In this document: one piece after another, positions 8,899 to 64,000 of the stretch | Layout of the letters: the number at the start of each line of letters is the position of its first letter | Position numbering within the stretch: the stretch's first letter is position 1 | Assembly (NCBI GenBank): GCA_964360035.1 | Contig: CAYHUJ010000001.1 | Span: 2,176-66,175, forward strand | DNA from: an uncultured Candidatus Saccharibacteria bacterium | GTDB taxonomy: Bacteria > Patescibacteriota > Minisyncoccia > UBA6257 > JACRHY01 | Length of the DNA: 64,000 bases | Reading direction: 5' to 3' | Program-made: the position numbers and the translations under genes | Notes under the pieces: generated by a model | What the model was told of the DNA's origin: nothing | Database searches by the model: none | Seen by the model: only the letters and a program-made list of their open reading frames with translations

Positions 8899-11560
8899 AA
8901 GCAAAATAAATCTTCGAATGTTCAATCTTCGGACGTCCGACGTCCGAAGATTGGGGGTGGTGGTTGTTGCGACGCTTGTTTTTATTTTTTATTCCGGCGA
9001 AGTTTCCGCCGCTACGCGTACTTGGGACGGCGGGGGAGCCGATAACAACTGGTCAACGGACGCCAACTGGTCTGGTGATCGGGCCCCGTCTCTCAACGAC
9101 GATGTAGTCTTTGACGGCACTTCGGTGAAGAATTCGGCAATGGACAGCGGGTTGACAATCCTAAGCTTCAATGCCAGCTCCACTTACACCGGAGCGTTGA
9201 GTATCGCCAATGGAAACACCTTGACGGTAACCGGCAACTGGACATATAACGCCGCCAATTTTGACGCCGGCACATCCACGATAAAATTTACCGGCAACAC
9301 TGCTACTTTCACTCCCGGCGCTGTCAATTACTATAATCTTGAAGTGGCAAAACCTAGCAGTGGCTCCGACCTCAATATTTCCGGCACCGCCACCACTACC
9401 AATGATTTAATTATCAGCGCCGCCAACGATGACACCAATAACATCAACACCGGCACCGTCAATGTGGGCCGCAACGTCAGCATTACCAACGCTAATTTCG
9501 GAGGCGGCACGGCAACGGTGAACATGAACGGCTCCGGCAGTCAAAGCGTTTCGTCAAGCGGCGGCTGGCTACCTAATTTTTCCGTGAACAAGTCAGCCGG
9601 CACTCTTAGTTTGATTGGTACTGTTGTAATCGGAGGAAACTACACTCACACCGCCGGCACCGTTGACGCCGGCACTTCCACCCTGAAGTTTGTTGGCGGT
9701 ACCACTACTTTCACTCCCGGCGCTGTCAATTACTATAATCTTGAAGTGGCAAAACCTAGCAGTGGCTCCGACCTCAATATTTCCGGCACCGCCACCACTA
9801 CCAATGATTTAATTATCAGCGCCGCCAACGATGACACCAATAACATCAACACCGGCACCGTCAATGTGGGCCGCAACGTCAGCATTACCAACGCTAATTT
9901 CGGAGGCGGCACGGCAACGGTGAACATGAACGGCTCCGGCAGTCAAAGCGTTTCGTCAAGCGGCGGCTGGCTACCTAATTTTTCCGTGAACAAGTCAGCT
10001 GGCTCCACCACTATTGATAGCAATGTACGGGTGGGCGGGACATTGACGGTTACCGCCGGCGAGCTGCGCCACAACGCTTATACTCTACAAATTGACGGCG
10101 GAACGACGATTTCCTCCGGCGGAACGTTTTCCGATTACGCGACCGCTTCCAGCACGATTAAATTCGGTTCCACGATCACGAACAATGGAACGTTAATTTT
10201 GAACGGCGGAGGAACAAGTTGCGGCGACTTTGACTATGTTCTATTGCGTTCCACCGCCGACGGCACCCAGCGTTCCTGGTCCGGTTCCGGAACCTTCAAC
10301 ATCCAGGATGCCGACCTGAAAGACATGGGAGCAACCAGTGGTACCGTAACAGTTCGCAGCGGCACGAACTCCGGCAATAACGGCGGTTCGTGGACTTTCA
10401 ACTCCAACTGTCTTCCTTCCGCTTCCTTTGACAACGATTTTTCTTCCTGGAGCTCCGGCAACGCTACCGTCAATTACAAACTGATTGACCCCAATTCCGA
10501 CGCGTCCAATATCTCTCAAACGGCCGATTCAGGGATGGAATATTCCGCCGACGGCTCAACTTATTCGGACGCGACGCAGGGAACGGGAGGGGATGGAATG
10601 ACCAGCCTTTCTTCATCCGCCTCGCCCGGAACGTCTCATTCTTTCGCCTGGGCCAGCGCAACCGACCTGCCGAACACTGAAGATCTAACCGTCTATCTGC
10701 GCATTCGTCCCAATGACGGCAGTGAAAACGCTTCCGACTGGGCGACCTCCTCCGCTTTCGCGATTGACAACGTCGCCCCATCTTCCGTCGGCGCCCCGAC
10801 TTTCGGAACAATCACCTCTTCTTCCGTTGAAATCGTCAAGCCGACAGCTGTTACGGAAAACGGCTCCGGCCTCAATACCTGGCAGGCGAGAAGAGATTCG
10901 GCAACTGTCCTTTCCGCCGTCGCCACCACCACGGCTTCCGTCTCCGATTCTTCTTTGTCGGCGAATACCCAATATGCCTATGACGTCCGGTTCGCCGATT
11001 ACGCCGCCAACGCTTCCGCTTACGGGACGTCCGCTTCCAAATACACCCTAGCTCCGACTCCGGCTAATCTGGCCGCCGTCGCGGCAAGAATTTCCATCAC
11101 TCTTTCCGTTGACCAATTCACCAACGATACCGCCGGCTCGTCCGGATACTACTTCGTCAATTCCACCGCCTCCACCACCTCCGGCTGGATCCAGGCGAAC
11201 TTCTGGACCGACACCGGCTTGACCTGCGGCGTTTCCTATTCTTACACGGTCAAACACAGAAACGGCGACGGAACGGAAACGTCAACCGTTTCTCTTGACG
11301 CTTCAGCGTCCGCCTGCCAGTCGGAAACGGCCGCCCGGGTGTCTTACGCGATATCCCCGCTGAGAATTTACGACGCGCCAAAGCCGGAGAAAGTTTTGCC
11401 TATTCCCGCTTCGGAAGTTTATCGGGACAAAGCGACGCGGATCGCCGAGCTGCAAACGCAAATCCGGCAGCTGCAAGCGCGACTTCTGGATCTTTACCGC
11501 TTCCTGCTTCAGGCGTTGATTAAAGAGCTGGAGGAAAGATCGGGACGTATAAATTTTTGA
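8882..11560 (+). CDS. Large secreted surface protein/adhesin: signal peptide, autotransporter-associated beta-strand (PATR-like) motif, tandem beta-rich repeats, FN3-like domains, C-terminal coiled coil
   Basis: MFNLRTSDVRRLGVVVVATLVFIFYSGEVSAA looks like a signal peptide. TRTWDGGGADNNWSTDANWSGDRAPSLNDDVVFDG matches the PATR consensus. T/S/G/N-rich repeats are followed by FN3-like segments. Alternative start ATG at 8918. Confidence 0.7.
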   Translation: MFIWNKSKINLRMFNLRTSDVRRLGVVVVATLVFIFYSGEVSAATRTWDGGGADNNWSTDANWSGDRAPSLNDDVVFDGTSVKNSAMDSGLTILSFNASSTYTGALSIANGNTLTVTGNWTYNAANFDAGTSTIKFTGNTATFTPGAVNYYNLEVAKPSSGSDLNISGTATTTNDLIISAANDDTNNINTGTVNVGRNVSITNANFGGGTATVNMNGSGSQSVSSSGGWLPNFSVNKSAGTLSLIGTVVIGGNYTHTAGTVDAGTSTLKFVGGTTTFTPGAVNYYNLEVAKPSSGSDLNISGTATTTNDLIISAANDDTNNINTGTVNVGRNVSITNANFGGGTATVNMNGSGSQSVSSSGGWLPNFSVNKSAGSTTIDSNVRVGGTLTVTAGELRHNAYTLQIDGGTTISSGGTFSDYATASSTIKFGSTITNNGTLILNGGGTSCGDFDYVLLRSTADGTQRSWSGSGTFNIQDADLKDMGATSGTVTVRSGTNSGNNGGSWTFNSNCLPSASFDNDFSSWSSGNATVNYKLIDPNSDASNISQTADSGMEYSADGSTYSDATQGTGGDGMTSLSSSASPGTSHSFAWASATDLPNTEDLTVYLRIRPNDGSENASDWATSSAFAIDNVAPSSVGAPTFGTITSSSVEIVKPTAVTENGSGLNTWQARRDSATVLSAVATTTASVSDSSLSANTQYAYDVRFADYAANASAYGTSASKYTLAPTPANLAAVAARISITLSVDQFTNDTAGSSGYYFVNSTASTTSGWIQANFWTDTGLTCGVSYSYTVKHRNGDGTETSTVSLDASASACQSETAARVSYAISPLRIYDAPKPEKVLPIPASEVYRDKATRIAELQTQIRQLQARLLDLYRFLLQALIKELEERSGRINF
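8924..8952. repeat. REP-C: AATCTTCGGACGTCCGACGTCCGAAGATT, inside the 5-prime end of the surface-protein ORF (encodes NLRTSDVRRL)
   Basis: Exact reverse complement of REP-A. Confidence 0.8.
9262..10065. repeat. Tandem duplication with a 402-bp period; cores 9303-9597 and 9705-9999 are identical (295 bp)
   Basis: The identical 64-aa antisense ORFs at 9331..9525 and 9733..9927 in the ORF track are offset by 402 nt. The protein repeats a roughly 134-aa unit. Confidence 0.85.
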
Positions 11561-11564
11561 AAAG

Positions 11565-12206
11565 TTATTTCTTACCGGACAGTTTTAATTTGACGATGGC
11601 GATAATGCGGCGCAGATGCGCCGGATTTTTGATCAAATGGATAGCGTTGGGCAGAAGTGAAAGAACGATGATGGCGGCGATAATGGGAACGATGTAGCGG
11701 TCAACGTCGGGAATGACGCTGCCGAGAAAATATCCCAGAACAGTCAGGCCGATTGCCCATAAGACCGCACCAATGACGTTGTAGAATAAAAATTTTGAGT
11801 AAGCCATTTTGCCCACGCCGGCCATAATAGGGGCGAAAGTTCTCACGATCGGCACGAAGCGGGCGAGAATCATCGCCTTGGCGCCGTGTTTTTCGTAAAA
11901 ATCCTTCGTCTGTTCAACGTGATCACGGTTGAAAATTATTGAATCCTCGCGCTCAAACAGCTTTTCCGCCATTTTCCGGCCGAAAACGTAGCCGGCGCTG
12001 TTTCCCAGTATCGCGGCGGAAAAGAAAATGGCGATTAAAATCGGCAGGCTCATCAGCTCTTGTGAGGCGAGGAAGCCGGCGGTGAAAAGCAGGCTGTCTC
12101 CCGGGAAGAAAAAACCGAAAAACAGCCCCGTTTCGGCGAAAATAATGGCGAAAAGGCCGACGTAACCGGCGGTTTTTATCAGCGCGATTAAATCTATGCC
12201 GAACAT
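11565..12206 (-). CDS. DedA/SNARE-associated (VTT-domain) membrane protein
   Basis: Multi-TM protein with the FFPGDSLLFTAGFLA...ARFVPIVRTF pattern. Confidence 0.8.
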   Translation of the reverse strand: MFGIDLIALIKTAGYVGLFAIIFAETGLFFGFFFPGDSLLFTAGFLASQELMSLPILIAIFFSAAILGNSAGYVFGRKMAEKLFEREDSIIFNRDHVEQTKDFYEKHGAKAMILARFVPIVRTFAPIMAGVGKMAYSKFLFYNVIGAVLWAIGLTVLGYFLGSVIPDVDRYIVPIIAAIIVLSLLPNAIHLIKNPAHLRRIIAIVKLKLSGKK

Positions 12207-12812
12207 TTATTTATATTGCTTCAAAATTTGGAAATCTTTTTTCAGTGATTCTTTGGTAAGCGGATTATAAACAGCGACGGCGGGGTGGTAAAGGGGAATA
12301 ACGGCGATTTTTCCGAAGGGCGTTTCCGCTTCAAACGGTCGTCCGTGAATTTTGCCTATCGTCATCGCGTCGTTCCACAGCCCGTATTTTTTCAGAATAT
12401 ACGTCATTGAAAAGCGTCCCAGCGCGGCAATGACTTTCGGCTTGATGATGTCTATTTGCCGGTCTAAAAACGGGGCGTAAGCGGCTATTTCCTCGGGCAG
12501 GGGATCGCGGTTGTTCGGCGGACGGTCTTTGACGATATTGGTGACGTAAACGTCTTGGCGGTCAATGCCGGCGGACGCCAAAAGCTCGTCCAGCACTTTT
12601 CCGGCGGCGCCGCAGAACGGCCGGCCGGTTTTCGCTTCGTTTCTTCCGGGCGCTTCGCCGATAAACATTATTTTGGCGCGGTGATTTCCTTCGCCAATGA
12701 CCGGATAGGCTTTATTTTTGACCCTTTCGGCGTAAAGCGGCGATTTTTGAAAAGCGAACACCTCGTCCCTTATTTTCTTCAGTACTTCCGTTTTGCCCGT
12801 TTCCGCTGCCAT
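12207..12812 (-). CDS. Uracil-DNA glycosylase, family 4-like
   Basis: GEGNHRAKIMFIGEAPGRNEAKTGRPFCGAAG motif. Confidence 0.8.
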   Translation of the reverse strand: MAAETGKTEVLKKIRDEVFAFQKSPLYAERVKNKAYPVIGEGNHRAKIMFIGEAPGRNEAKTGRPFCGAAGKVLDELLASAGIDRQDVYVTNIVKDRPPNNRDPLPEEIAAYAPFLDRQIDIIKPKVIAALGRFSMTYILKKYGLWNDAMTIGKIHGRPFEAETPFGKIAVIPLYHPAVAVYNPLTKESLKKDFQILKQYK

Positions 12813-12887
12813 ACGGCGCTTATTTTATCACTAAACACCGGCGGAAGCCACTACGGAAATGGCAAGCCCCGCTTTTTCGCGGGGCTT

Positions 12888-13133
12888 TCAGTGCGTGTGG
12901 GAAGAAAAAATATCTATATACGTTTTTCTTCCCTCTTTAGTGAAAGAAAATGCCGCCCTTAAAATAAAGCGATGGCCGCACTCGCTTTTTACTTCCACGG
13001 CGACTTTGCTTCGCCCGCTTACTTCATTGATGTCCACCACCGCGAATTCTCCTTGGTGGATGGGGCAGAAAATACAAACCGGATTGTCGTCGTCGTCCAT
13101 CACTACGCCGTCGTTGTTCACTTCCGATGTCAT
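12888..13133 (-). CDS. Small Cys-containing hypothetical protein (81 aa)
   Basis: It sits on the same strand as its neighbours in a 500-bp gap. CIFCP...ECGH pattern. A weak hairpin lies after its stop. Confidence 0.35.
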   Translation of the reverse strand: MTSEVNNDGVVMDDDDNPVCIFCPIHQGEFAVVDINEVSGRSKVAVEVKSECGHRFILRAAFSFTKEGRKTYIDIFSSHTH

Positions 13134-13307
13134 TTCGTCCTCCTACGCTCCTTTCGCGCGTCTCGTTAAAATACTGGCTTTAAGCTACGGTATTCGGCGG
13201 CGGGAGTCAATCAAGGCGGATAAAGTCGGCGGCGCGGCTTCCGTCAATTGGCGAACAGAAGCACGCCGCTCAAGGCGAAAGAAATAATAATGAGGATGAT
13301 GACGGTT

Positions 13308-57647: not shown

Positions 57648-57915
57648 AAATTTAAATTTTGATTAATTTCAGACGCGCAACGGCAGGATGGAGCCGCCGG
57701 TTTCAAAATAAACAAAAGACGGGCCTTTTACGATTATTATAGCAAAACCCGTTTTAACTTCAAATCCACATCCCGGTCCAAACGCATAGGCGTAAAACCT
57801 TATGTGTCTGGATTAGGGATGCTCCGCCGACGCCGTTCCCCCGCTGATATCATACGATTGCTTAATTTTTGAGCGGGCCGCCAGGCGAAGTTGAAACAGG
57901 CCCGGTTTGAATTTG

Positions 57916-57986
57916 AGCGGGATACGAGAATTGAACTCGCGTCTGTTGCTTGGGAAGCAACCGTACTGCCACCGTACGAATCCCGC
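57916..57986 (-). tRNA. tRNA-Gly (anticodon CCC)
   Basis: Folded by hand. Acceptor GCGGGAT/ATCCCGC. D arm GTAC-GGTGGCA-GTAC. Anticodon arm GTTGC-TTCCCAA-GCAAC. T arm GCGAG-TTCAATT-CTCGT. U73 discriminator as expected for Gly. No encoded CCA. Confidence 0.8.
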
Positions 57987-58028: not shown

Positions 58029-58083
58029 GCAAAGCGGAGCTTTGCGGCGGCTGGCGGCGGGATTTTAGATGGCTTGCGGGGGG
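58029..58083. repeat. IR-L: left 55-56-bp inverted repeat (GCAAAGCGGAGCTTTGCGGCGGCTGGCGGCGGGATTTTAGATGGCTTGCGGGGGG)
   Basis: Its reverse complement occurs at 60070-60125 with one mismatch. Confidence 0.85.
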
Positions 58084-58091
58084 AAATTTCC

Positions 58092-58148: not shown

Positions 58149-59501
58149 ATGGAATCAACTACTTCATTTCTAATCGTCGCGCTTGGTTATCTTGCCTTTG
58201 GCATAGCGACGGTAATTTGGATAACCAAAAAGAAAAAGGCGGGCGAGAAGATTTCTTTGCTGGCAAAGATTATCATCGCCATGGTTGTTCTTTCCAGTTC
58301 TTCCGCTCTTCTTTCTGTAATTATTGAGCCGTCTCCGGAGCAGGAGACAAACGCTCCCGAAACCAGCACTCTTTACGTAAAAGAGGGAGGCGCGAATGTC
58401 CGCGAATGTCCTTCAACTTCGTGCAAAGTGATTAGCACGCTTCCCCAGAACGCGTGGTTCACGTTTTCGGGCGATTCTTACGACAAATATCCCAATTGGG
58501 CCGAAGTTACCCTTCTGGACGGGCGGGGCGGCTATGTGAGCAAAAGCACGCTTTCTTTTGAAGTATCCGAAGTGCCGCAGCCGCAAGAAAATGGAATCAG
58601 ATTGGCAAAATGGAACTTTGATCCGTTGGAAATCGACGGTTCGTATGGCATTTCGTTTTGCATTCCGGATTCAGCACGCTCCGGAGCAACCTGCGGCGGC
58701 CTTGCCGGAGACACCCAAACCCCGATCGGCGGTTCCCCGCCATATTCGTTCGTCAAAAGCTCCGGCTTTCTGCCGCCTGGAATGTCGCTTGAGCTGAACG
58801 GCCTGCTTTCGGGTTCGCCGACAACCGAAGGCACTTATAATTTTAAACTTTGCGCCAAGGATTTATCAATGAACCAGGGGTGCGAGAATTACACGCTGGT
58901 GGTGAAAAAAGAAGATTCAATTGCTCAACCTTCCTCTGGCGGAAATTATAAAGCAGTTTTGTCGTTTACTGCCGATATGCAAAATTATCAACGCAATAAC
59001 GATTCGCTGCTCGCTAATAACGAACATGTATCCGTGACAGTTACGGCTAGTAGATCAGAACAAGATGAACAGGGTAGTAAAAGTATCAGCAGTTATAATT
59101 TTTCTTCTACTGGACGAAGCAGTATTTACGTAAGTAGTAATTGTATATCGCAGTATAGCGGGACTTTTGGCGATAATTTGGACTCCGGACCAGGAGCCAT
59201 ATACGGTTATCTGCCTTCCCGTCCACTTATATTCAAAGCAAGAACAGGATACGCCGGGGATTATAGGGATTTTGATTATACGCCATTATCAGCAGATTTT
59301 TGTGCGACTTGGCCTCCGGATGTGTTCATAAGAGAGGTTTTGTCGGACATTATATCCGGCACAGGAGGGGGCATTGCCCTAGATCAACGCAGCTTGAATC
59401 CGGCAGGAGAAACTATTTCTTTTAGCAACGATTATCGTCCCGAACATTTAGCTACAGACAGAATTACTTATAACGGCACGCTGGTATTTACGAAAGAGTA
59501 A
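58149..59501 (+). CDS. Membrane-anchored surface protein with a bacterial SH3 (SH3b) domain and a putative Ig (dystroglycan/cadherin-like) domain
   Basis: Two N-terminal TM segments. SH3b-like LYVKEGGANVRECPSTSCKVISTLPQNAWFTF...YVSKSTL. PPYSF...LPPGMSL...GSPTTEGTYNF matches the putative Ig domain pattern. GC is lower than the core genome. Confidence 0.6.
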   Translation: MESTTSFLIVALGYLAFGIATVIWITKKKKAGEKISLLAKIIIAMVVLSSSSALLSVIIEPSPEQETNAPETSTLYVKEGGANVRECPSTSCKVISTLPQNAWFTFSGDSYDKYPNWAEVTLLDGRGGYVSKSTLSFEVSEVPQPQENGIRLAKWNFDPLEIDGSYGISFCIPDSARSGATCGGLAGDTQTPIGGSPPYSFVKSSGFLPPGMSLELNGLLSGSPTTEGTYNFKLCAKDLSMNQGCENYTLVVKKEDSIAQPSSGGNYKAVLSFTADMQNYQRNNDSLLANNEHVSVTVTASRSEQDEQGSKSISSYNFSSTGRSSIYVSSNCISQYSGTFGDNLDSGPGAIYGYLPSRPLIFKARTGYAGDYRDFDYTPLSADFCATWPPDVFIREVLSDIISGTGGGIALDQRSLNPAGETISFSNDYRPEHLATDRITYNGTLVFTKE

Positions 59502-59516
59502 CTCGTTTATCAGGGG

Positions 59517-59912
59517 ATGAAACTTCTCGATAAAAAATGGAAATGGGCGGCGGCGGTAATTTTGCTGCCGGTGGTTGTTATATTGATCGGGATCTACGTA
59601 TATTTTTTTTGGACCTGTTGCCCGGAGCCGGCAACTGAACGTTTAAGAGCTTCGTGTCAAGTGGAAGGAGGATTTTTTGTTGAAGAGTTGGAACAATGCC
59701 AACTGCCGGCATCGGACGCGGGGAAAACATGCAAAGATTCATCCGAATGCGAGGGTTTCTGCGAAGCGGATCTGTCCCCGGATGAAATATCAAAAATAAC
59801 CAACGGGGAACGAGTGGAAAAAACGGGCGCCTGCGGGCGGTGGAAAAACTTTTTTGCGGGATGTTTTTATATAATAGAAGACAGCGCGGTTGAGAGATTT
59901 TGCGCTGACTAA
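59517..59912 (+). CDS. Small membrane-anchored Cys-rich (10 Cys) protein
   Basis: TM segment, then a CC...C...C..C...C.C...C...C pattern suggesting a disulfide-rich ectodomain. Confidence 0.5.
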   Translation: MKLLDKKWKWAAAVILLPVVVILIGIYVYFFWTCCPEPATERLRASCQVEGGFFVEELEQCQLPASDAGKTCKDSSECEGFCEADLSPDEISKITNGERVEKTGACGRWKNFFAGCFYIIEDSAVERFCAD

Positions 59913-60053: not shown

Positions 60054-60069
60054 TGTGAAAGGGGTTTTC

Positions 60070-60125
60070 CCCCCCGCAAGCCGTCTAAAATCCCGCCGCC
60101 AGCCGCCGCAAAGCTCCGCTTTGCC
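60070..60125. repeat. IR-R: right inverted repeat, reverse complement of IR-L (55/56 identical)
   Basis: Direct comparison of the two sequences. Confidence 0.85.
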
Positions 60126-60275: not shown

Positions 60276-63200
60276 TTATTTCCCGCGGCCAAGATTATTC
60301 CAATCTTTTTTCTTAAGGAGTTCAAGAACGGGTGCATCTTTCTTGTCTTTAGGAATAATAGGCATGGTCTCATCGTTTATACCTGCCATATCCAAATCGT
60401 TCGGACCTATTTCCCACGCCTCTCTATCGTTAAAGGATGTTTTAACAATACCTACATCAAACAGAACTCTGGGCTGGGGTTGGGTCCCATCAATGATTGC
60501 TGGTGCCAGTAAATAAATACCAAATCTTTTAAAGCTTGCTGAAAACATATCAAGATTTGTTGTGGCATCGGGGGTCAGGGTATGCACTCTCGACACAGTA
60601 ATAAGACGCTGATTCTTTGGCGGTCTTTTTGTAAGGTCAAGATTTGTAGTAACAACTGCACGATACCAAGCAGGATTTTTTTCTGAAACTCCTCGTATCA
60701 TCGAAATTCTAATCGTCTCATCCGCATCTTTTTCGCCAAATATACCTCTCCAATCCTTAAATATCGCTCTGGCTTTTTCTTCGTTTTTAAACAAGAAGGC
60801 CATTACAGGCGGACGGCTAGGTATTGTGATGTAAAGCACACCGCCCCAGCCCGCTTCGTCCCATAGATGTTGGCGGATTACCGAGACATTCTTAATTTCG
60901 TCATGCCGCTTTGGAGTACCAGAAGATTTTTCCTCACTTTCTTCTTTTTTAAATTCTTTGGTTTTAACAGGCTTTCCACTTTTTTCAGGGGTGTATGGAT
61001 ATAAAGTTGCCTCAGGATTTATCCAGTTAAGGATAGATCTTTTAGGGTTATACCCCAAGACATTTCCCAAAGTAACCATTGGCGTAGAGAAACTGAAGGC
61101 CCTAGAATTAACTTCCTCGTCTTTAAAAAGTTTGAGCAAATCAACGTCAGCATCTTTGAAAAGGACAGTGTTTGCAATCAGGTGCAATACAATCTCCGAG
61201 ATTTTAGAGGAAATTTTTTCCTGTTGCTCTTTTGAAAGAGAGTGAGGACTAAAAGAACCACAGGTAATAGCTATGCCGAATTTACCGTCTTTTTGAATCT
61301 CATATATTATTTCTTCCTTTAGTGATTCATCGCGTGTGATCGTGATATAGGCACTGCTGTCTCTTGAGGCGGCATCCATTTCCAAAGTGGTAGACAAAAA
61401 GCTCTCAAGAGCCGCGAGAACATACTCGCCGATTTCGATTTCGGGGCTACCGTTGGGTGCTTTGATAATATATTCGCATCCTAGAACGCTTGACCTTAAT
61501 TCCACTACTTCACCAATATAGTATTCTGGCGCGCTTGGCAGATTTTCTTGAGCAGGTTGGGAAAGATATGAATTGAAAAATTCATCAACTTCATCGGGAG
61601 GCATCTTTTCCTTAAAAGAATCTGGAACCATGTCTTTTCCACCAAGACGGTATAGCAAGCCAAAGGCGGCAAAATCTAGGTCCATCTGCATTAACGTATC
61701 GGGTAGTTTCTCTAATATTTTCAATTGCTCGTCAAGTGTTTTGATTACCAGCAGCCCCATAAGCGAACCAAAGAAAAGATCATCATTCAGTAGTTTTGAT
61801 TTTTGTTCATCTGTTTTTAAAAGTTGAGCAGAGAGAAGATGGTGAAGCTGATGCCACTCAAGTGCGTATCCTATTCGGCCTAATTGGACCTCAATAGTTC
61901 TCAATCTTTTGTAGCAAGCGAGCTGCATTGTGTTGATTTTGCTATACACCCAAAAATCACTTGTTGCATGGGAGGCGGCATTCAACAGTACGCCGCGAGC
62001 AGCCCAAAGTAGGCCAGCATCTTCATAGGCAAATGAAAGAGTGAATAGCGCATGAACTAGCTGGTCCTTGCTCTCTTTTTTGTAAAAACGCCTTAGCGCT
62101 CTACCGAGAAAATCTATAGCCTTGTAAGTTCTCCTGCCTTTTAAATGTTGGATTCCACGATTAAGGAGTATTTCACCTGCCGCAAGTTCTCCTTCTCTGT
62201 TCGTCACCACCTCAACCAGATGCTCTTGAAGTTCTTCGTAAGCGCTTTCACCATTGAATACGTCATCCATTTCATTCAAGAGCCGGAAGGTTATTTCAAA
62301 GGGGAAACCGATAAGGTTGCTGGCCTTATCCATCACATCTTTAAGTTGCCGAAATGCTTTTGCTACTTCTGCAGGGTCATCTCTTTTGCGTAAAAGATTC
62401 GCAAAACAGAGCATGGCTTCTGCGTGTACCGATGCACTGGAATTAGCCTTATTACTTTTATGGGTTTCCAGTTTTTCAAAAAGATTTTTTGTTTTTTCCT
62501 CAAGCATTTCAGGCGACACCAAGTTAGATGTGCCAGCAAGAGCGGACAGAAGACCCCAAAGATTATTCAGCCTTTCGGCGGAAAATATGTTATTTGAGGC
62601 AAGTGCAAGTTTTTCTATGGCATCGTACTGCTTTAAAAAGGCATTAAAATCTTCAAACCAAAAGAACGTGGTCCATGCTCGTTGATATAAAGCGGTGAAC
62701 TGTTGGTCGCTAGTGCCGTGCTCATTAGCAAATCGTATTGCACGATCAAATAAAGATTCGACATCCTGACGCGGCTCATCAAGCTCCGCAGCTATTAACG
62801 CCGCGTCTAAGCACTCGTCAACGGTTTTTATCGTGACACTGGACTTACTTACGTCTTCTGCGATAGAGGAATTTAATTCATCGAACTGCTTTTTTCTTTG
62901 TGAATCCAAGGGACCGGCTTCTTTTTTTTCCTCAAGCCCATCTCCCATTTTTAATTCTTCAATAGCAAGCTTCTGCCTTTTATTTGCAAAAACCTTATCA
63001 AGAATCCAATTCCTATCAAGGACAACAACCTGAAAGCTGTATTTTTTAGACAATTCGTCCTCCAGAGTTGCTCTTGTTTTGTCCCTCGCAAATTCACTCG
63101 TTATACAAAAGACTTTTGCGTAAGACCTGCCTGTTTTATGTATTTCTTCGGTGTCGCTTCTAATTTTTCCTGACCAATCTTTTTGAGTGCTAAAAGCAAA

Positions 63201-63524
63201 GGCAAAATCTTCCTTGCTTTGATTGTCCTGACCTTGGAAAAAAGCACTTCGTATTTGAGAAGCGACAGGGATTGTAGATGAGTCAACTTTGCTATCGCCG
63301 CCGCCCGTAGAGCCAGTTTGAGGTCGAAGGTTGGGGCAAATCTCGTATTGACAAAGCTTCCGCGCGAATTCTTCAAAATCCTGCTCCTGTTTTCTTTGCC
63401 CCAAGGTATCTAAGTGATACTCAAGGGTCGTACGGTTTAGTTTGCTCTCCGTTACTATTTTTGAATCAGAAAACCTGTGAGGTTTTCTTTTTTTCATAAA
63501 ATCTTTTGGGGACGGAATACTCAT
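60276..63524 (-). CDS. Large (1082 aa) protein: N-terminal Mrr-type PD-(D/E)xK restriction-endonuclease catalytic domain plus a roughly 880-aa helical region of unknown function; no Walker A motif
   Basis: N-terminal DFEEFARKLCQYE...GSTGGGDSKVD...FAFSTQKDWSGKIRSD...AKVFCITSEFARDK...QVVVLDRNWIL follows the Mrr_cat consensus as I recall it (FEe..a.ll..lGy.....g.sgDgGiD..., vQcKr, ifvTtssFs.eA). About 40% GC. The start codon abuts the stop of the upstream HEPN gene. Confidence 0.7.
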   Translation of the reverse strand: MSIPSPKDFMKKRKPHRFSDSKIVTESKLNRTTLEYHLDTLGQRKQEQDFEEFARKLCQYEICPNLRPQTGSTGGGDSKVDSSTIPVASQIRSAFFQGQDNQSKEDFAFAFSTQKDWSGKIRSDTEEIHKTGRSYAKVFCITSEFARDKTRATLEDELSKKYSFQVVVLDRNWILDKVFANKRQKLAIEELKMGDGLEEKKEAGPLDSQRKKQFDELNSSIAEDVSKSSVTIKTVDECLDAALIAAELDEPRQDVESLFDRAIRFANEHGTSDQQFTALYQRAWTTFFWFEDFNAFLKQYDAIEKLALASNNIFSAERLNNLWGLLSALAGTSNLVSPEMLEEKTKNLFEKLETHKSNKANSSASVHAEAMLCFANLLRKRDDPAEVAKAFRQLKDVMDKASNLIGFPFEITFRLLNEMDDVFNGESAYEELQEHLVEVVTNREGELAAGEILLNRGIQHLKGRRTYKAIDFLGRALRRFYKKESKDQLVHALFTLSFAYEDAGLLWAARGVLLNAASHATSDFWVYSKINTMQLACYKRLRTIEVQLGRIGYALEWHQLHHLLSAQLLKTDEQKSKLLNDDLFFGSLMGLLVIKTLDEQLKILEKLPDTLMQMDLDFAAFGLLYRLGGKDMVPDSFKEKMPPDEVDEFFNSYLSQPAQENLPSAPEYYIGEVVELRSSVLGCEYIIKAPNGSPEIEIGEYVLAALESFLSTTLEMDAASRDSSAYITITRDESLKEEIIYEIQKDGKFGIAITCGSFSPHSLSKEQQEKISSKISEIVLHLIANTVLFKDADVDLLKLFKDEEVNSRAFSFSTPMVTLGNVLGYNPKRSILNWINPEATLYPYTPEKSGKPVKTKEFKKEESEEKSSGTPKRHDEIKNVSVIRQHLWDEAGWGGVLYITIPSRPPVMAFLFKNEEKARAIFKDWRGIFGEKDADETIRISMIRGVSEKNPAWYRAVVTTNLDLTKRPPKNQRLITVSRVHTLTPDATTNLDMFSASFKRFGIYLLAPAIIDGTQPQPRVLFDVGIVKTSFNDREAWEIGPNDLDMAGINDETMPIIPKDKKDAPVLELLKKKDWNNLGRGK

Positions 63525-63525
63525 A

Positions 63526-64000
63526 TTATTTTTTCTTCAATTTTTGAAGTTCTTTATATGCTTCATAATATCGTTTACATTCCTCTTGAGGATCCGTTAT
63601 CCTTCGGTGAAAAAATTTTGTTAGCTCTTGTCTTGTTGCCCAAGCATCAAAAAATACTTGCGCGAAACTGTCAGCATCTCTAAAAGGATTCCGGCCCTTA
63701 TATCGTATCTTTTCAACATTATTTTGATGTGCGACTTGATTTCTCAAATCGGATAGCGGCTTTATGCTGGCAATATCATATGGCCAATTTTTAAGTATAG
63801 GCCATAAAATTTTGTACATATTACCAAAACTTAATTCCTCAACCATTTTTTCTAAATCGGCAAAAACTTTTTTATCATCATCTTCTTTGCCGGTTTCAAA
63901 AACTATCGGTTTGAAATAGTGATAAAAAATCTGACGAAACAAAATCTCTATCCCAGCGTGAATATCAAAAATTACCGACCTAACAAAATGATCATCGTCC
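63526..64000 (-). CDS. Abi_2 (AbiD/AbiF)-like protein with a HEPN Rx4H motif (LRNQVAH); 5-prime end outside the window
   Basis: The frame stays open to the window edge (the ORF-track start is a TTG). PLSDLRNQVAHQNN matches the RNxxAH HEPN signature of Abi-like proteins. Its stop lies 2 nt from the start of the 1082-aa gene. Confidence 0.55.
   Translation of the reverse strand, partial: DDDHFVRSVIFDIHAGIEILFRQIFYHYFKPIVFETGKEDDDKKVFADLEKMVEELSFGNMYKILWPILKNWPYDIASIKPLSDLRNQVAHQNNVEKIRYKGRNPFRDADSFAQVFFDAWATRQELTKFFHRRITDPQEECKRYYEAYKELQKLKKK

Follow-up and report, generated by a model that had tools for sequence, protein, structure and literature searches.

Some antiviral STAND (AVAST) proteins, among them Avs4, combine an N-terminal Mrr-like nuclease with a C-terminal TPR sensor. 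The Mrr_cat family (PF04471) takes in E. coli Mrr, AF1548, and the nuclease domains of MspJI, AspBHI and LlaBIII. The restriction-endonuclease fold also has non-catalytic relatives, such as the N-domain of RPB5. The immune repertoire of the Patescibacteria (CPR) is poorly known.

Defence proteins that pair an effector with a sensor and lack an NTPase have precedents in Dsr1, which shares the sensor of Avs7 (PMC13581612), in DSR2 (PMC11850899), and in Upx (PMC13601566, PMC13099982). DSR1 and DSR2 sense phage structural proteins (PMC11850899, PMC13581612). Upx, a single defence protein of PD-(D/E)xK type, senses phage terminase and shows that a non-canonical site (DxR) can be active (PMC13099982, PMC13601566).

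In this study, we examine a gene for a 1082-aa protein in a 64,000-nucleotide stretch of DNA (the window) from an uncultured Candidatus Saccharibacteria bacterium. The data lead us to consider the product probably, if not securely, a stand-alone, mobile, single-gene sensor-nuclease without an NTPase that serves defence or conflict between genetic elements.

Results

The gene and the low-GC island that holds it

The 1082-aa open reading frame is genuine. Seven contigs assembled from metagenomes of Hainich groundwater carry an exact match, and more than 300 full-length homologues were found. The features of the gene and its product are collected in Table 1. The GC content of the gene is 0.417, as compared to 0.503 in the backbone, and the island in which it lies ranges from 0.35 to 0.42 against a backbone of 0.50. 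Ahead of the gene, the island carries genes for an HTH protein, an EcoRI-like methylase, a GmrSD-like protein and a HEPN-like protein, all of which are neighbours independent of the 1082-aa gene. When the surroundings of the gene were scanned for promoters and terminators, sites were no more numerous than chance predicts.

Table 1. Features of the 1082-aa protein gene and its upstream neighbour in the window
Feature	Residues	Position	Strand	Remarks	Basis
Complete gene, 1082-aa protein	1-1082	60276..63524	(-)	Stop codon 60276-60278	ORF list, homologues
N-terminal extension	1-44	63393..63524	(-)	Conserved; consensus SPKEFLKxRRPERFSDS, then helix	Model
Restriction-endonuclease-like domain (PD-(D/E)xK fold, Mrr-like)	45-204	62913..63392	(-)	Presumed effector	
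D77-S-K79-V-D81	77-81	63282..63296	(-)	End of glycine-rich loop TG(P/S)xGGGD; presumed metal-binding Asp pair	Conservation
S112-T-Q-K115	112-115	63180..63191	(-)	End of beta3; canonical (E/Q)xK position, non-canonical here	Conservation
K120-I-R-S-D124	120-124	63153..63167	(-)	Helix after beta3; invariant Lys/Asp pair	Conservation
All-helical TPR-like solenoid	205-662	61539..62912	(-)	Presumed sensor or scaffold	Model, Foldseek
Alpha/beta middle domain	663-815	61080..61538	(-)	Invariant E700, E707, R808	Model, conservation
Lys/Glu-rich linker	816-873	60906..61079	(-)	Poorly conserved	Model, conservation
Alpha/beta C-terminal domain and terminal helix	874-1082	60279..60905	(-)	Invariant W888, W893, W1037	Model, conservation
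188-aa HEPN-like gene		63526..64000	(-)	3' 158 codons in window, start beyond window end	Full gene on source contig L001:2581-3147

A patchy and horizontally mobile family

Relatives of the protein occur in 334 of 185,579 species genomes, and the gene is thus not a widespread core gene. The carriers belong to the CPR, Bacteroidota, Acidobacteriota, Cyanobacteriota, Bacillota, Pseudomonadota, Planctomycetota, Verrucomicrobiota and Chloroflexota, with a single archaeal occurrence in a Methanobacteriaceae MAG. Family members are also present in 15 plasmid records, seven of them conjugative. The family is patchy across bacterial phyla, its genes are found on plasmids as well as in variable islands, and it is horizontally mobile. 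A phage-borne copy was considered and rejected: the sole record labelled as phage is UNVERIFIED, and the genes around its copy resemble a Bacteroidales conjugative element.

A search with the N-terminal profile against 1.84 billion representatives gave 1,363 matches, with 493 clusters at 50% identity for E<=1e-30. The best 150 of the 1,363 matches were same-family proteins only; about 870 further matches were weaker. At one locus (L056) the family gene is accompanied by a tandem, divergent paralogue. This paralogue, together with the 1,363 profile matches of which only 493 are close, hints at a superfamily that has the effector in common and carries other sensors.

Four structural parts and no NTPase

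Family members are of a conserved size (approximately 1,070-1,165 aa) and are without annotation in Pfam, NCBIfam, PADLOC and RefSeq. Pfam, NCBIfam and PADLOC scans of the protein and 34 homologues annotated nothing in the large protein. The defence catalogue used for comparison, PADLOC-DB v2, which reaches to 2023 and includes Upx, Dsr1/2, Shedu, Hachiman HamA and AVAST, gave 0 matches at E<=1. Sequence and profile searches of the PDB with the family alignments likewise yielded nothing that annotates the protein; one match to an S7 ribosomal protein (E 0.014) was judged spurious.

The full-length AlphaFold2 model is confident (pLDDT 90.5, pTM 0.86). Four parts can be told apart in it: an alpha/beta domain at the N-terminus, a helical solenoid that resembles TPR and spans 458 residues, and a pair of alpha/beta domains towards the C-terminus. 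The first-pass annotation had described the roughly 880 residues beyond the nuclease as alpha-helical and repeat-like. This description does not hold for all of them because the model shows the two C-terminal domains (residues 663-815 and 874-1060) to be mixed alpha/beta, with a low-confidence linker between them, and confines the solenoid to the segment before them. Conservation is highest in the effector domain (0.667, versus 0.42-0.54 elsewhere). In the N-terminal extension that precedes it, R13, P15, F18, S19 and D20 are each kept in at least 93% of 116 homologues.

The claim that the protein lacks Walker A/B motifs and an ATPase was borne out. No NTPase was matched in the protein or its homologues in Pfam, NCBIfam or PADLOC, no Walker A motif is conserved, and from residue 205 to residue 662 the model contains nothing but helices, with neither a beta-sheet nor a P-loop. 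The separation from Avs/STAND nucleases and Mrr-ATPase fusions that had been drawn from this claim stands as well, as the body is non-ATPase and no Avs, NLR or NACHT HMM matched.

A divergent nuclease fold at the N-terminus

A PD-(D/E)xK fold had been expected for the N-terminus and was found. The alpha-beta-beta-beta-alpha-beta core is present in the N-terminal domain, and Mrr-type domains are its nearest structural neighbours, with a best Foldseek E-value of only 0.019. Modelled alone, the domain reached moderate confidence (pLDDT 74), with values below 50 in the GGGD loop.

A relation to Mrr at the level of sequence was not recovered. The domain had been said to match the Mrr_cat consensus point by point, yet such a match is not statistically detectable. 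PF04471 gave no match for the window protein and for 0 of 34 diverse homologues even at E<=1, and BLASTP against E. coli Mrr found nothing. Aligned by hhalign with the catalytic-domain alignment of E. coli Mrr, the family alignment scored a probability of 0.2-0.3%, although sensitivity was limited because both alignments are of low diversity (Neff approximately 2-2.6). The family thus differs from Mrr_cat in the absence of any HMM or profile-profile match. What stands of the original reading, an Mrr-type nuclease joined to a large non-ATPase body, is its outline, namely an Mrr-like N-terminal domain of PD-(D/E)xK fold, and not the match to Mrr_cat or the QxK motif.

The conservation of the putative catalytic residues was followed across 116 homologues. 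D77, K79 and D81 are invariant (116/116), and the glycine-rich loop before them parallels, by eye, the GDGGID of E. coli Mrr; the distant paralogue at L056 has GGDQGRD at this position. S112 is also invariant (116/116) where Mrr has Q or E. The family consensus at this site is S-A-K-K: position 114 is K in 90 of the homologues and Q in the window protein, and K or R stands at 114 or 115 in 110, so the position of the lysine is not fixed. K120 and D124 are invariant (116/116) and are both retained in the L056 paralogue, while E47 is conserved in 109. The aspartates that the first-pass annotation assigned to the metal site are invariant, but FSTQKD cannot be read as QxK: the window protein has S112-T-Q114-K115, with the Ser invariant at the Q/E site of Mrr and K at +2 in only 90 of the 116. 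The family does not display the catalytic D...(D/E/Q)xK motif in full, since D77 and D81 are invariant and Ser occupies the E/Q position. It differs further from Mrr_cat in having K79, K120 and D124 as extra invariant residues. Judged by conservation, D77, K79, D81, S112, K120 and D124 form an invariant polar set that resembles an active site.

These substitutions bear on whether the fold is catalytic at all. A dead or repurposed fold, comparable to the RPB5 N-domain and acting as a scaffold, a regulator, or a maintenance or competition factor of mobile elements and not as a DNase, would account for the missing (E/Q)xK, for the appearance of RPB5 among the Foldseek matches of the domain, and for the recurrence of ParAB beside the gene on plasmids and in cyanobacterial loci. 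We consider this unlikely. The positions at and around the expected active site hold residues that do not vary across phyla (two Asp, two Lys, one Ser and a further Asp), the N-terminal domain is the most conserved segment of the protein, domain searches detected none for replication, partition or regulation, and most loci are chromosomal islands without ParAB. Moreover, non-canonical PD-(D/E)xK sites can work, as in the DxR motif of the Upx NTD (PMC13099982).

The solenoid and the C-terminal domains

The solenoid is built of helices only, with pLDDT mostly above 90. Foldseek comparison of the whole model with the PDB returned TPR proteins only, the top matches being LGN/Pins TPR domains (best E 9.4e-4), and no match that informs the C-terminal domains; weak TPR Pfam matches were seen in some homologues. 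The middle domain had neither a Pfam match nor a PDB sequence match, and no family match was obtained for residues 874-1082. The linker has no regular secondary structure except for a short helix at 831-834, falls to a pLDDT of approximately 50 at 861-870 (below 50 at 862-867), and has the lowest conservation of all segments (0.42). In some homologues the C-terminus is extended by a tail that is Lys-rich or of SEC-C type.

In an alternative reading, the protein would be a Type IV or Type IIS-like restriction enzyme that senses DNA: the C-terminal domains would detect DNA that is modified or foreign, and cleavage would fall to the Mrr-like domain. MspJI and AspBHI are restriction enzymes of comparable design, with the domain order reversed relative to the 1082-aa protein. 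Against this, the TPR-like solenoid takes up almost half of the protein, and modules of this protein-binding kind do not, to our knowledge, occur in restriction enzymes. Sequence searches found no SRA, winged-helix or other DNA-binding family, and conservation in the C-terminal domains falls mostly on aromatic or hydrophobic residues and not on basic ones. Such an enzyme is therefore an improbable reading of the protein.

Neighbouring genes vary from locus to locus

Clustering of 1,414 neighbour ORFs revealed no conserved partner gene. Among 147 close neighbours no family occurred more than three times, and several were housekeeping genes. The neighbours differ between loci and, in a plain tally, are often defence or mobile-element genes. 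They include integrases, resolvases, ParAB, AbiEii/Gabija-like ATPases, DUF1156 with DUF499, a TIR fusion, an Eco57I-type methylase with an SNF2-PLD protein, an nSTAND protein, AbiE, NACHT, SMEK and Hachiman. A role in plasmid replication or partition, prompted by the ParAB neighbours, was rejected because there is no primase, helicase or wHTH domain and because ParAB is missing at most loci.

The first-pass annotation had proposed that a HEPN gene is co-transcribed with the large gene and that the two form a DNase plus RNase two-effector system. The 188-aa gene does lie upstream on the same strand and in the same low-GC island, with a gap of 1 nt to the start codon of the 1082-aa gene, and its HEPN identity is plausible, given an invariant Rx4H motif in its family (R117-N-x-x-A-H122) and weak HEPN matches. 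A conserved partnership is what failed. ORF calling, all-vs-all clustering, phmmer and tblastn (E<=10) found no 188-aa homologue beside 80 other family loci, including that of a 79%-identical relative (L007), and 188-aa homologues exist on other Patescibacteria contigs without the large gene, where they adjoin integrases, resolvases, a methyltransferase and a weak Abi_alpha match. The large gene itself is at most loci bordered by sizeable gaps or by genes on the opposite strand. The joint action of a HEPN-like RNase and a 1082-aa DNase is largely refuted by this missing co-occurrence, and we regard it as very improbable. Because co-occurrence is absent both ways, the pairing is a local juxtaposition within a defence island.

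Discussion

Since the family is unannotated, patchy and carried on mobile DNA, and since it joins a domain that resembles a DNA cutter to a sensor-like body without an ATP motor, a new single-gene anti-virus defence protein is the most likely interpretation. We infer both the defence role and the nuclease activity of the family. By analogy with the TPR sensors of Avs and the solenoid sensors of DSR, the solenoid and C-terminal domains would bind a ligand derived from the invader, probably a protein. Binding may relieve autoinhibition, cause the N-terminal domains to oligomerise, or both. These domains would then cut DNA in a metal-dependent manner through a non-canonical active site, in which D...D plus Ser/Lys would stand in for (E/Q)xK, and the outcome would be destruction of the invader or abortive infection.

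A bolder proposal, which we put forward tentatively, is that the family represents an unrecognised, widespread class of NTPase-independent pattern-recognition nucleases, extending from the CPR to an archaeon and conjugative plasmids. In such an "Avs without the ATPase", the TPR solenoid and two alpha/beta domains without detected relatives would sense a conserved component of the invader and thereby activate a divergent Mrr-like nuclease whose catalytic residues are arranged in a new way, D-x-K-x-D ... S ... K-x-x-x-D; a larger superfamily would combine the same effector with other sensors.

If the sensor-nuclease reading is true, the family would be a phylogenetically very broad and well-conserved addition to the small set of immune receptors in which a sensor is coupled directly to an effector with no NTPase switch (DSR1, DSR2 and Upx), and it would bear on how a nuclease can be licensed by nothing more than the binding of a ligand. 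A defence candidate native to the Patescibacteria would be gained, and a variant of the PD-(D/E)xK active site would be defined. With one gene and clear point mutants, the family lends itself readily to testing.

Upx resembles the 1082-aa protein in being a large single-gene protein of PD-(D/E)xK fold without an NTPase, and tandem second copies occur in both. Upx, however, has its essential nuclease at the C-terminus and its sensor, which is not of TPR type, at the N-terminus, and the 1082-aa protein has no PADLOC match. With DSR1 and DSR2 the 1082-aa protein shares the plan of a single protein of approximately 1,000-1,200 aa that combines an N-terminal effector with a helical solenoid as sensor and lacks an ATPase; the effector is a nuclease fold here and a SIR2 NADase in DSR, and the PADLOC Dsr models show no sequence similarity. 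As in Avs, an N-terminal effector is combined with a C-terminal TPR-type sensor, as judged from the model, the TPR matches and the nuclease-fold N-terminus, but the central STAND NTPase (Walker A/B, NOD module) is absent. Relative to Avs4, the 1082-aa family has an S-x-K motif in place of QxK, and the protein carries extra C-terminal alpha/beta domains.

RESULTS

The 1082-aa gene and its family

The 1082-aa gene is real; it forms an ATG-to-stop open reading frame, and seven contigs of Hainich groundwater metagenomes encode an identical protein, with a partial NCBI copy labelled 'Patescibacteria group bacterium'. More than 300 full-length homologues (1,070-1,165 aa, 35-91% identity) are named 'hypothetical protein' or, occasionally, 'TPR repeat protein', and none is named further. 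Searches of Pfam and PADLOC with the protein gave no match, and NCBIfam gave a single, spurious one (E 0.08). When 34 diverse homologues were scanned singly, only weak TPR matches and an occasional SEC-C tail were detected, and PDB searches by sequence and profile were empty or spurious. PADLOC v2 does not include the family, and neither Pfam nor NCBIfam has a model for it.

Relatives occur in 334 of 185,579 species scanned (one genome per species), spread over CPR groups, Bacteroidota, Acidobacteriota, Cyanobacteriota, Bacillota, Pseudomonadota, Planctomycetota, Verrucomicrobiota and Chloroflexota, plus one archaeal Methanobacteriaceae MAG. A search of 1.84 billion representatives with the N-terminal profile matched 493 50%-identity clusters at E<=1e-30, a number that rose to 1,363 when the cut-off was relaxed to E<=1e-3. 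Fifteen plasmid records, seven of them conjugative, carry a copy, invariably annotated 'hypothetical protein'. The sole 'phage' record with a member, at 25% identity (L096; MT836254.1, 'UNVERIFIED: Bacteriophage sp.'), places it among a MutS_I fragment, DUF4099/DUF3945, a glucosaminidase, a trypsin-like peptidase, DUF1848 and a UvrD-like helicase, and looks like a bacterial conjugative element, not a phage.

Domain architecture

The full-length protein was modelled with AlphaFold2 from a 116-sequence alignment, and the model was confident (mean pLDDT 90.5, pTM 0.86). The first-pass annotation had described the roughly 880 residues beyond the N-terminal domain as helical; by the domain division of the model this is only about half right, being true of the solenoid but not of the two alpha/beta domains that follow. 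Foldseek comparison of the whole model with the PDB retrieved TPR proteins, the best being LGN/Pins (E 9.4e-4). A strongly conserved peptide, SPKEFLKxRRPERFSDS, precedes the nuclease fold; its residues R13, P15, F18, S19 and D20 are kept by 93% or more of the homologues. Residues 83-101, the beta2-beta3 insert, have block pLDDT values of 80-83 in the full-length model versus 45-48 when modelled alone, a soft hint of interdomain regulation.

Coordinates of the genes, protein segments and repeats discussed (L001 is the source contig extending past the window end; L037 and L056 are other loci with family members; domain limits are from the AlphaFold2 model)
Feature	Position	Remarks
1082-aa gene	window 60276-63524 (-)
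188-aa gene	window 63526-64000 (-); L001:2581-3147	cut by window end
HTH_3 gene	L001:62-2560	67 aa; within the span shown
EcoRI_methylase-family gene	L001:62-2560	373 aa; within the span shown
GmrSD_N + weak HNH gene	L001:62-2560	389 aa; within the span shown
Inverted-repeat arms	window 58029-58086 and 60067-60124	58 nt, 97% complementary
SH3_3/He_PIG gene	window 58149-59501 (+)	450 aa
Small gene	window 59517-59912 (+)	131 aa
tRNA-Gly(ccc)	window 57915-57986
Conserved extension	residues 1-44; window 63393-63524 (-)
Alpha/beta domain	residues 45-204	alpha-beta-beta-beta-alpha-beta-alpha-beta
DSKVD	window 63282-63296
STQK	window 63180-63191
KIRSD	window 63153-63167
Helical solenoid	residues 205-662	helices only
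Alpha/beta domain	residues 663-815
Linker	residues 816-873	poorly conserved, no regular secondary structure
Alpha/beta domain	residues 874-1060
Terminal helix	residues 1065-1078
Tandem paralogue and family member	L056:6681-9872 and 9920-13285	Acidobacteria MAG
PEP-utilizers-TIR gene	L037:6722-9967	Verrucomicrobia MAG, 1081 aa

No P-loop was matched in the protein or the 34 homologues by Pfam, NCBIfam or PADLOC, Walker-A-like strings are confined to 9 of 116 sequences and always fall within one TPR helix, and the model shows residues 205-662 to be free of beta-sheet. This rules out an Avs/STAND protein, and the original view that the protein lacks an ATPase holds. A Type IV-like DNA-sensing restriction enzyme is a rival reading, which would account for AspBHI and MspJI as neighbours of the N-terminal domain but leaves the TPR solenoid unexplained.

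The N-terminal domain and its putative active site

The domain had been reported to match Mrr_cat 'point by point'. The quoted strings DSKVD, STQK and KIRSD are present, but none of the 34 homologues matches Mrr_cat. A catalytic-domain alignment built from E. coli K-12 Mrr, compared by hhalign with an alignment of the family N-terminal 205 residues, scored 0.2-0.3% probability, and BLASTP gave no match. By eye there are parallels between the family and E. coli Mrr, namely a glycine-rich D-x-x-x-D loop (GGGDSKVD and GDGGIDG, respectively), a hydrophobic beta3 strand, 'FFVTNQF' and 'VFITTSGF', and 'ILDRTWIL' and 'LVDGERLV'; this likeness is without statistical support at the sequence level.

Residues 45-204 are the best-conserved part of the protein (mean column conservation 0.667 versus 0.42-0.54 elsewhere). 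Six residues never vary across 116 homologues (D77, K79, D81, S112, K120 and D124), and E47 is kept in 109. Mrr-type enzymes carry (E/Q)xK at the position equivalent to S112-x-K114, where the family has an invariant Ser and K114 in 90/116. The proposed QxK motif does not exist, since the protein reads S-T-Q-K there; position 114 or 115 is K or R in 110 of the 116. A catalytically dead fold serving as a scaffold is a rival reading. From the conservation pattern we read the site as probably functional but non-canonical, for which the Upx N-terminal domain, active with a DxR motif (PMC13099982), is a precedent.

In the L056 locus, in tandem with a family member, lies a divergent paralogue of 1063 aa that matches the family profile at E 2.5e-31. 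The two have the N-terminal domain and a portion of the solenoid in common, but not the C-terminal domains. The paralogue carries 'TLEK' and a GGDQGRD loop of the classical type, and retains the equivalents of K120 and D124, not of K79.

The HEPN-like neighbour and the home island

In the source contig the 1082-aa gene closes a run of five genes on one strand (HTH, EcoRI-like methylase, GmrSD_N/HNH, 188-aa and 1082-aa). The run lies in an island whose GC is 0.35-0.42, compared with 0.50 for the backbone, fairly near a tRNA-Gly(ccc). Beyond window position 64000 the island continues upstream with its first three genes, and no cognate restriction endonuclease is visible up to the contig end. Two plus-strand genes are flanked by an inverted repeat, found within the window as that single pair only, with one arm about 40 nt from the tRNA and the other about 150 nt beyond the 1082-aa stop; it could mark an invertible segment or be the terminal repeats of an inserted element.

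The 188-aa gene ends 1 nt before the 1082-aa start codon. Its family (40 matches, mostly in Patescibacteria-type metagenomes) is small and seemingly confined to Patescibacteria-like metagenomes. A HEPN identity is plausible because R117-N-x-x-A-H122 is invariant and sub-threshold matches are consistent, to HEPN_RiboL-PSP in 19 of 29 members (best 6.7e-5) and also to Abi_2 and the HEPN motif region of Csm6. A DNase plus RNase two-effector system had been proposed for the pair. This two-gene reading is largely refuted: none of 80 other family loci, that of a 79%-identical relative included, has a 188-aa homologue (phmmer, tblastn, E<=10), and the 188-aa gene is found elsewhere without the 1082-aa gene, beside integrases, resolvases, a methyltransferase and a weak Abi_alpha match. 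Their side-by-side placement is local to this island, and the 188-aa protein may be an independent Abi-like toxin.

Neighbourhoods across the family

Open reading frames were called in the 80 loci and 1,414 neighbour proteins were clustered; no conserved neighbour emerged, only recombinases and ParAB being recurrent. Between them, the 147 nearest neighbours hit 132 Pfam families. Judged from the family's own loci alone, many neighbours belong to defence systems or mobile elements: integrases, resolvases, AbiEii-, Gabija- and AriA-like ATPases, a DUF1156 methylase with DUF499, a PEP-utilizer-TIR fusion, an Eco57I-type methylase with an SNF2-PLD protein, and an nSTAND protein. Neighbours include AbiE, NACHT and an integrase on a Nostoc plasmid, a SMEK protein in Agrobacterium, Hachiman directly downstream in Sphingobium, and an S8 peptidase with an AAA ATPase in Burkholderia. 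The L037 protein, directly upstream of a family member, is an unusual fusion of a PEP-utilizers mobile domain and a C-terminal TIR.

DISCUSSION

The 1082-aa protein is best read as a sensor-nuclease that stands alone and is independent of an NTPase. The analysis shows its fold, architecture and invariant residues, that it has neither an NTPase nor a partner gene, and that its distribution is patchy and mobile. By analogy with Avs (PMC13581612, PMC13601566), DSR2 (PMC11850899), Dsr1 and Upx, the solenoid and C-terminal domains would bind an invader component, and binding would activate the N-terminal nuclease through unmasking or oligomerisation.

The family is a good, easily testable candidate defence family. 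In concept it holds no surprise, since fusions of sensor and effector that lack an NTPase are already known; Dsr1 has the Avs7 sensor in common without a STAND domain (PMC13581612). The protein fails the sequence tests for Mrr_cat. In its proposed working it would most resemble an Avs4-type receptor minus the ATPase, or a DSR protein with a nuclease replacing SIR2, while being a member of neither group.
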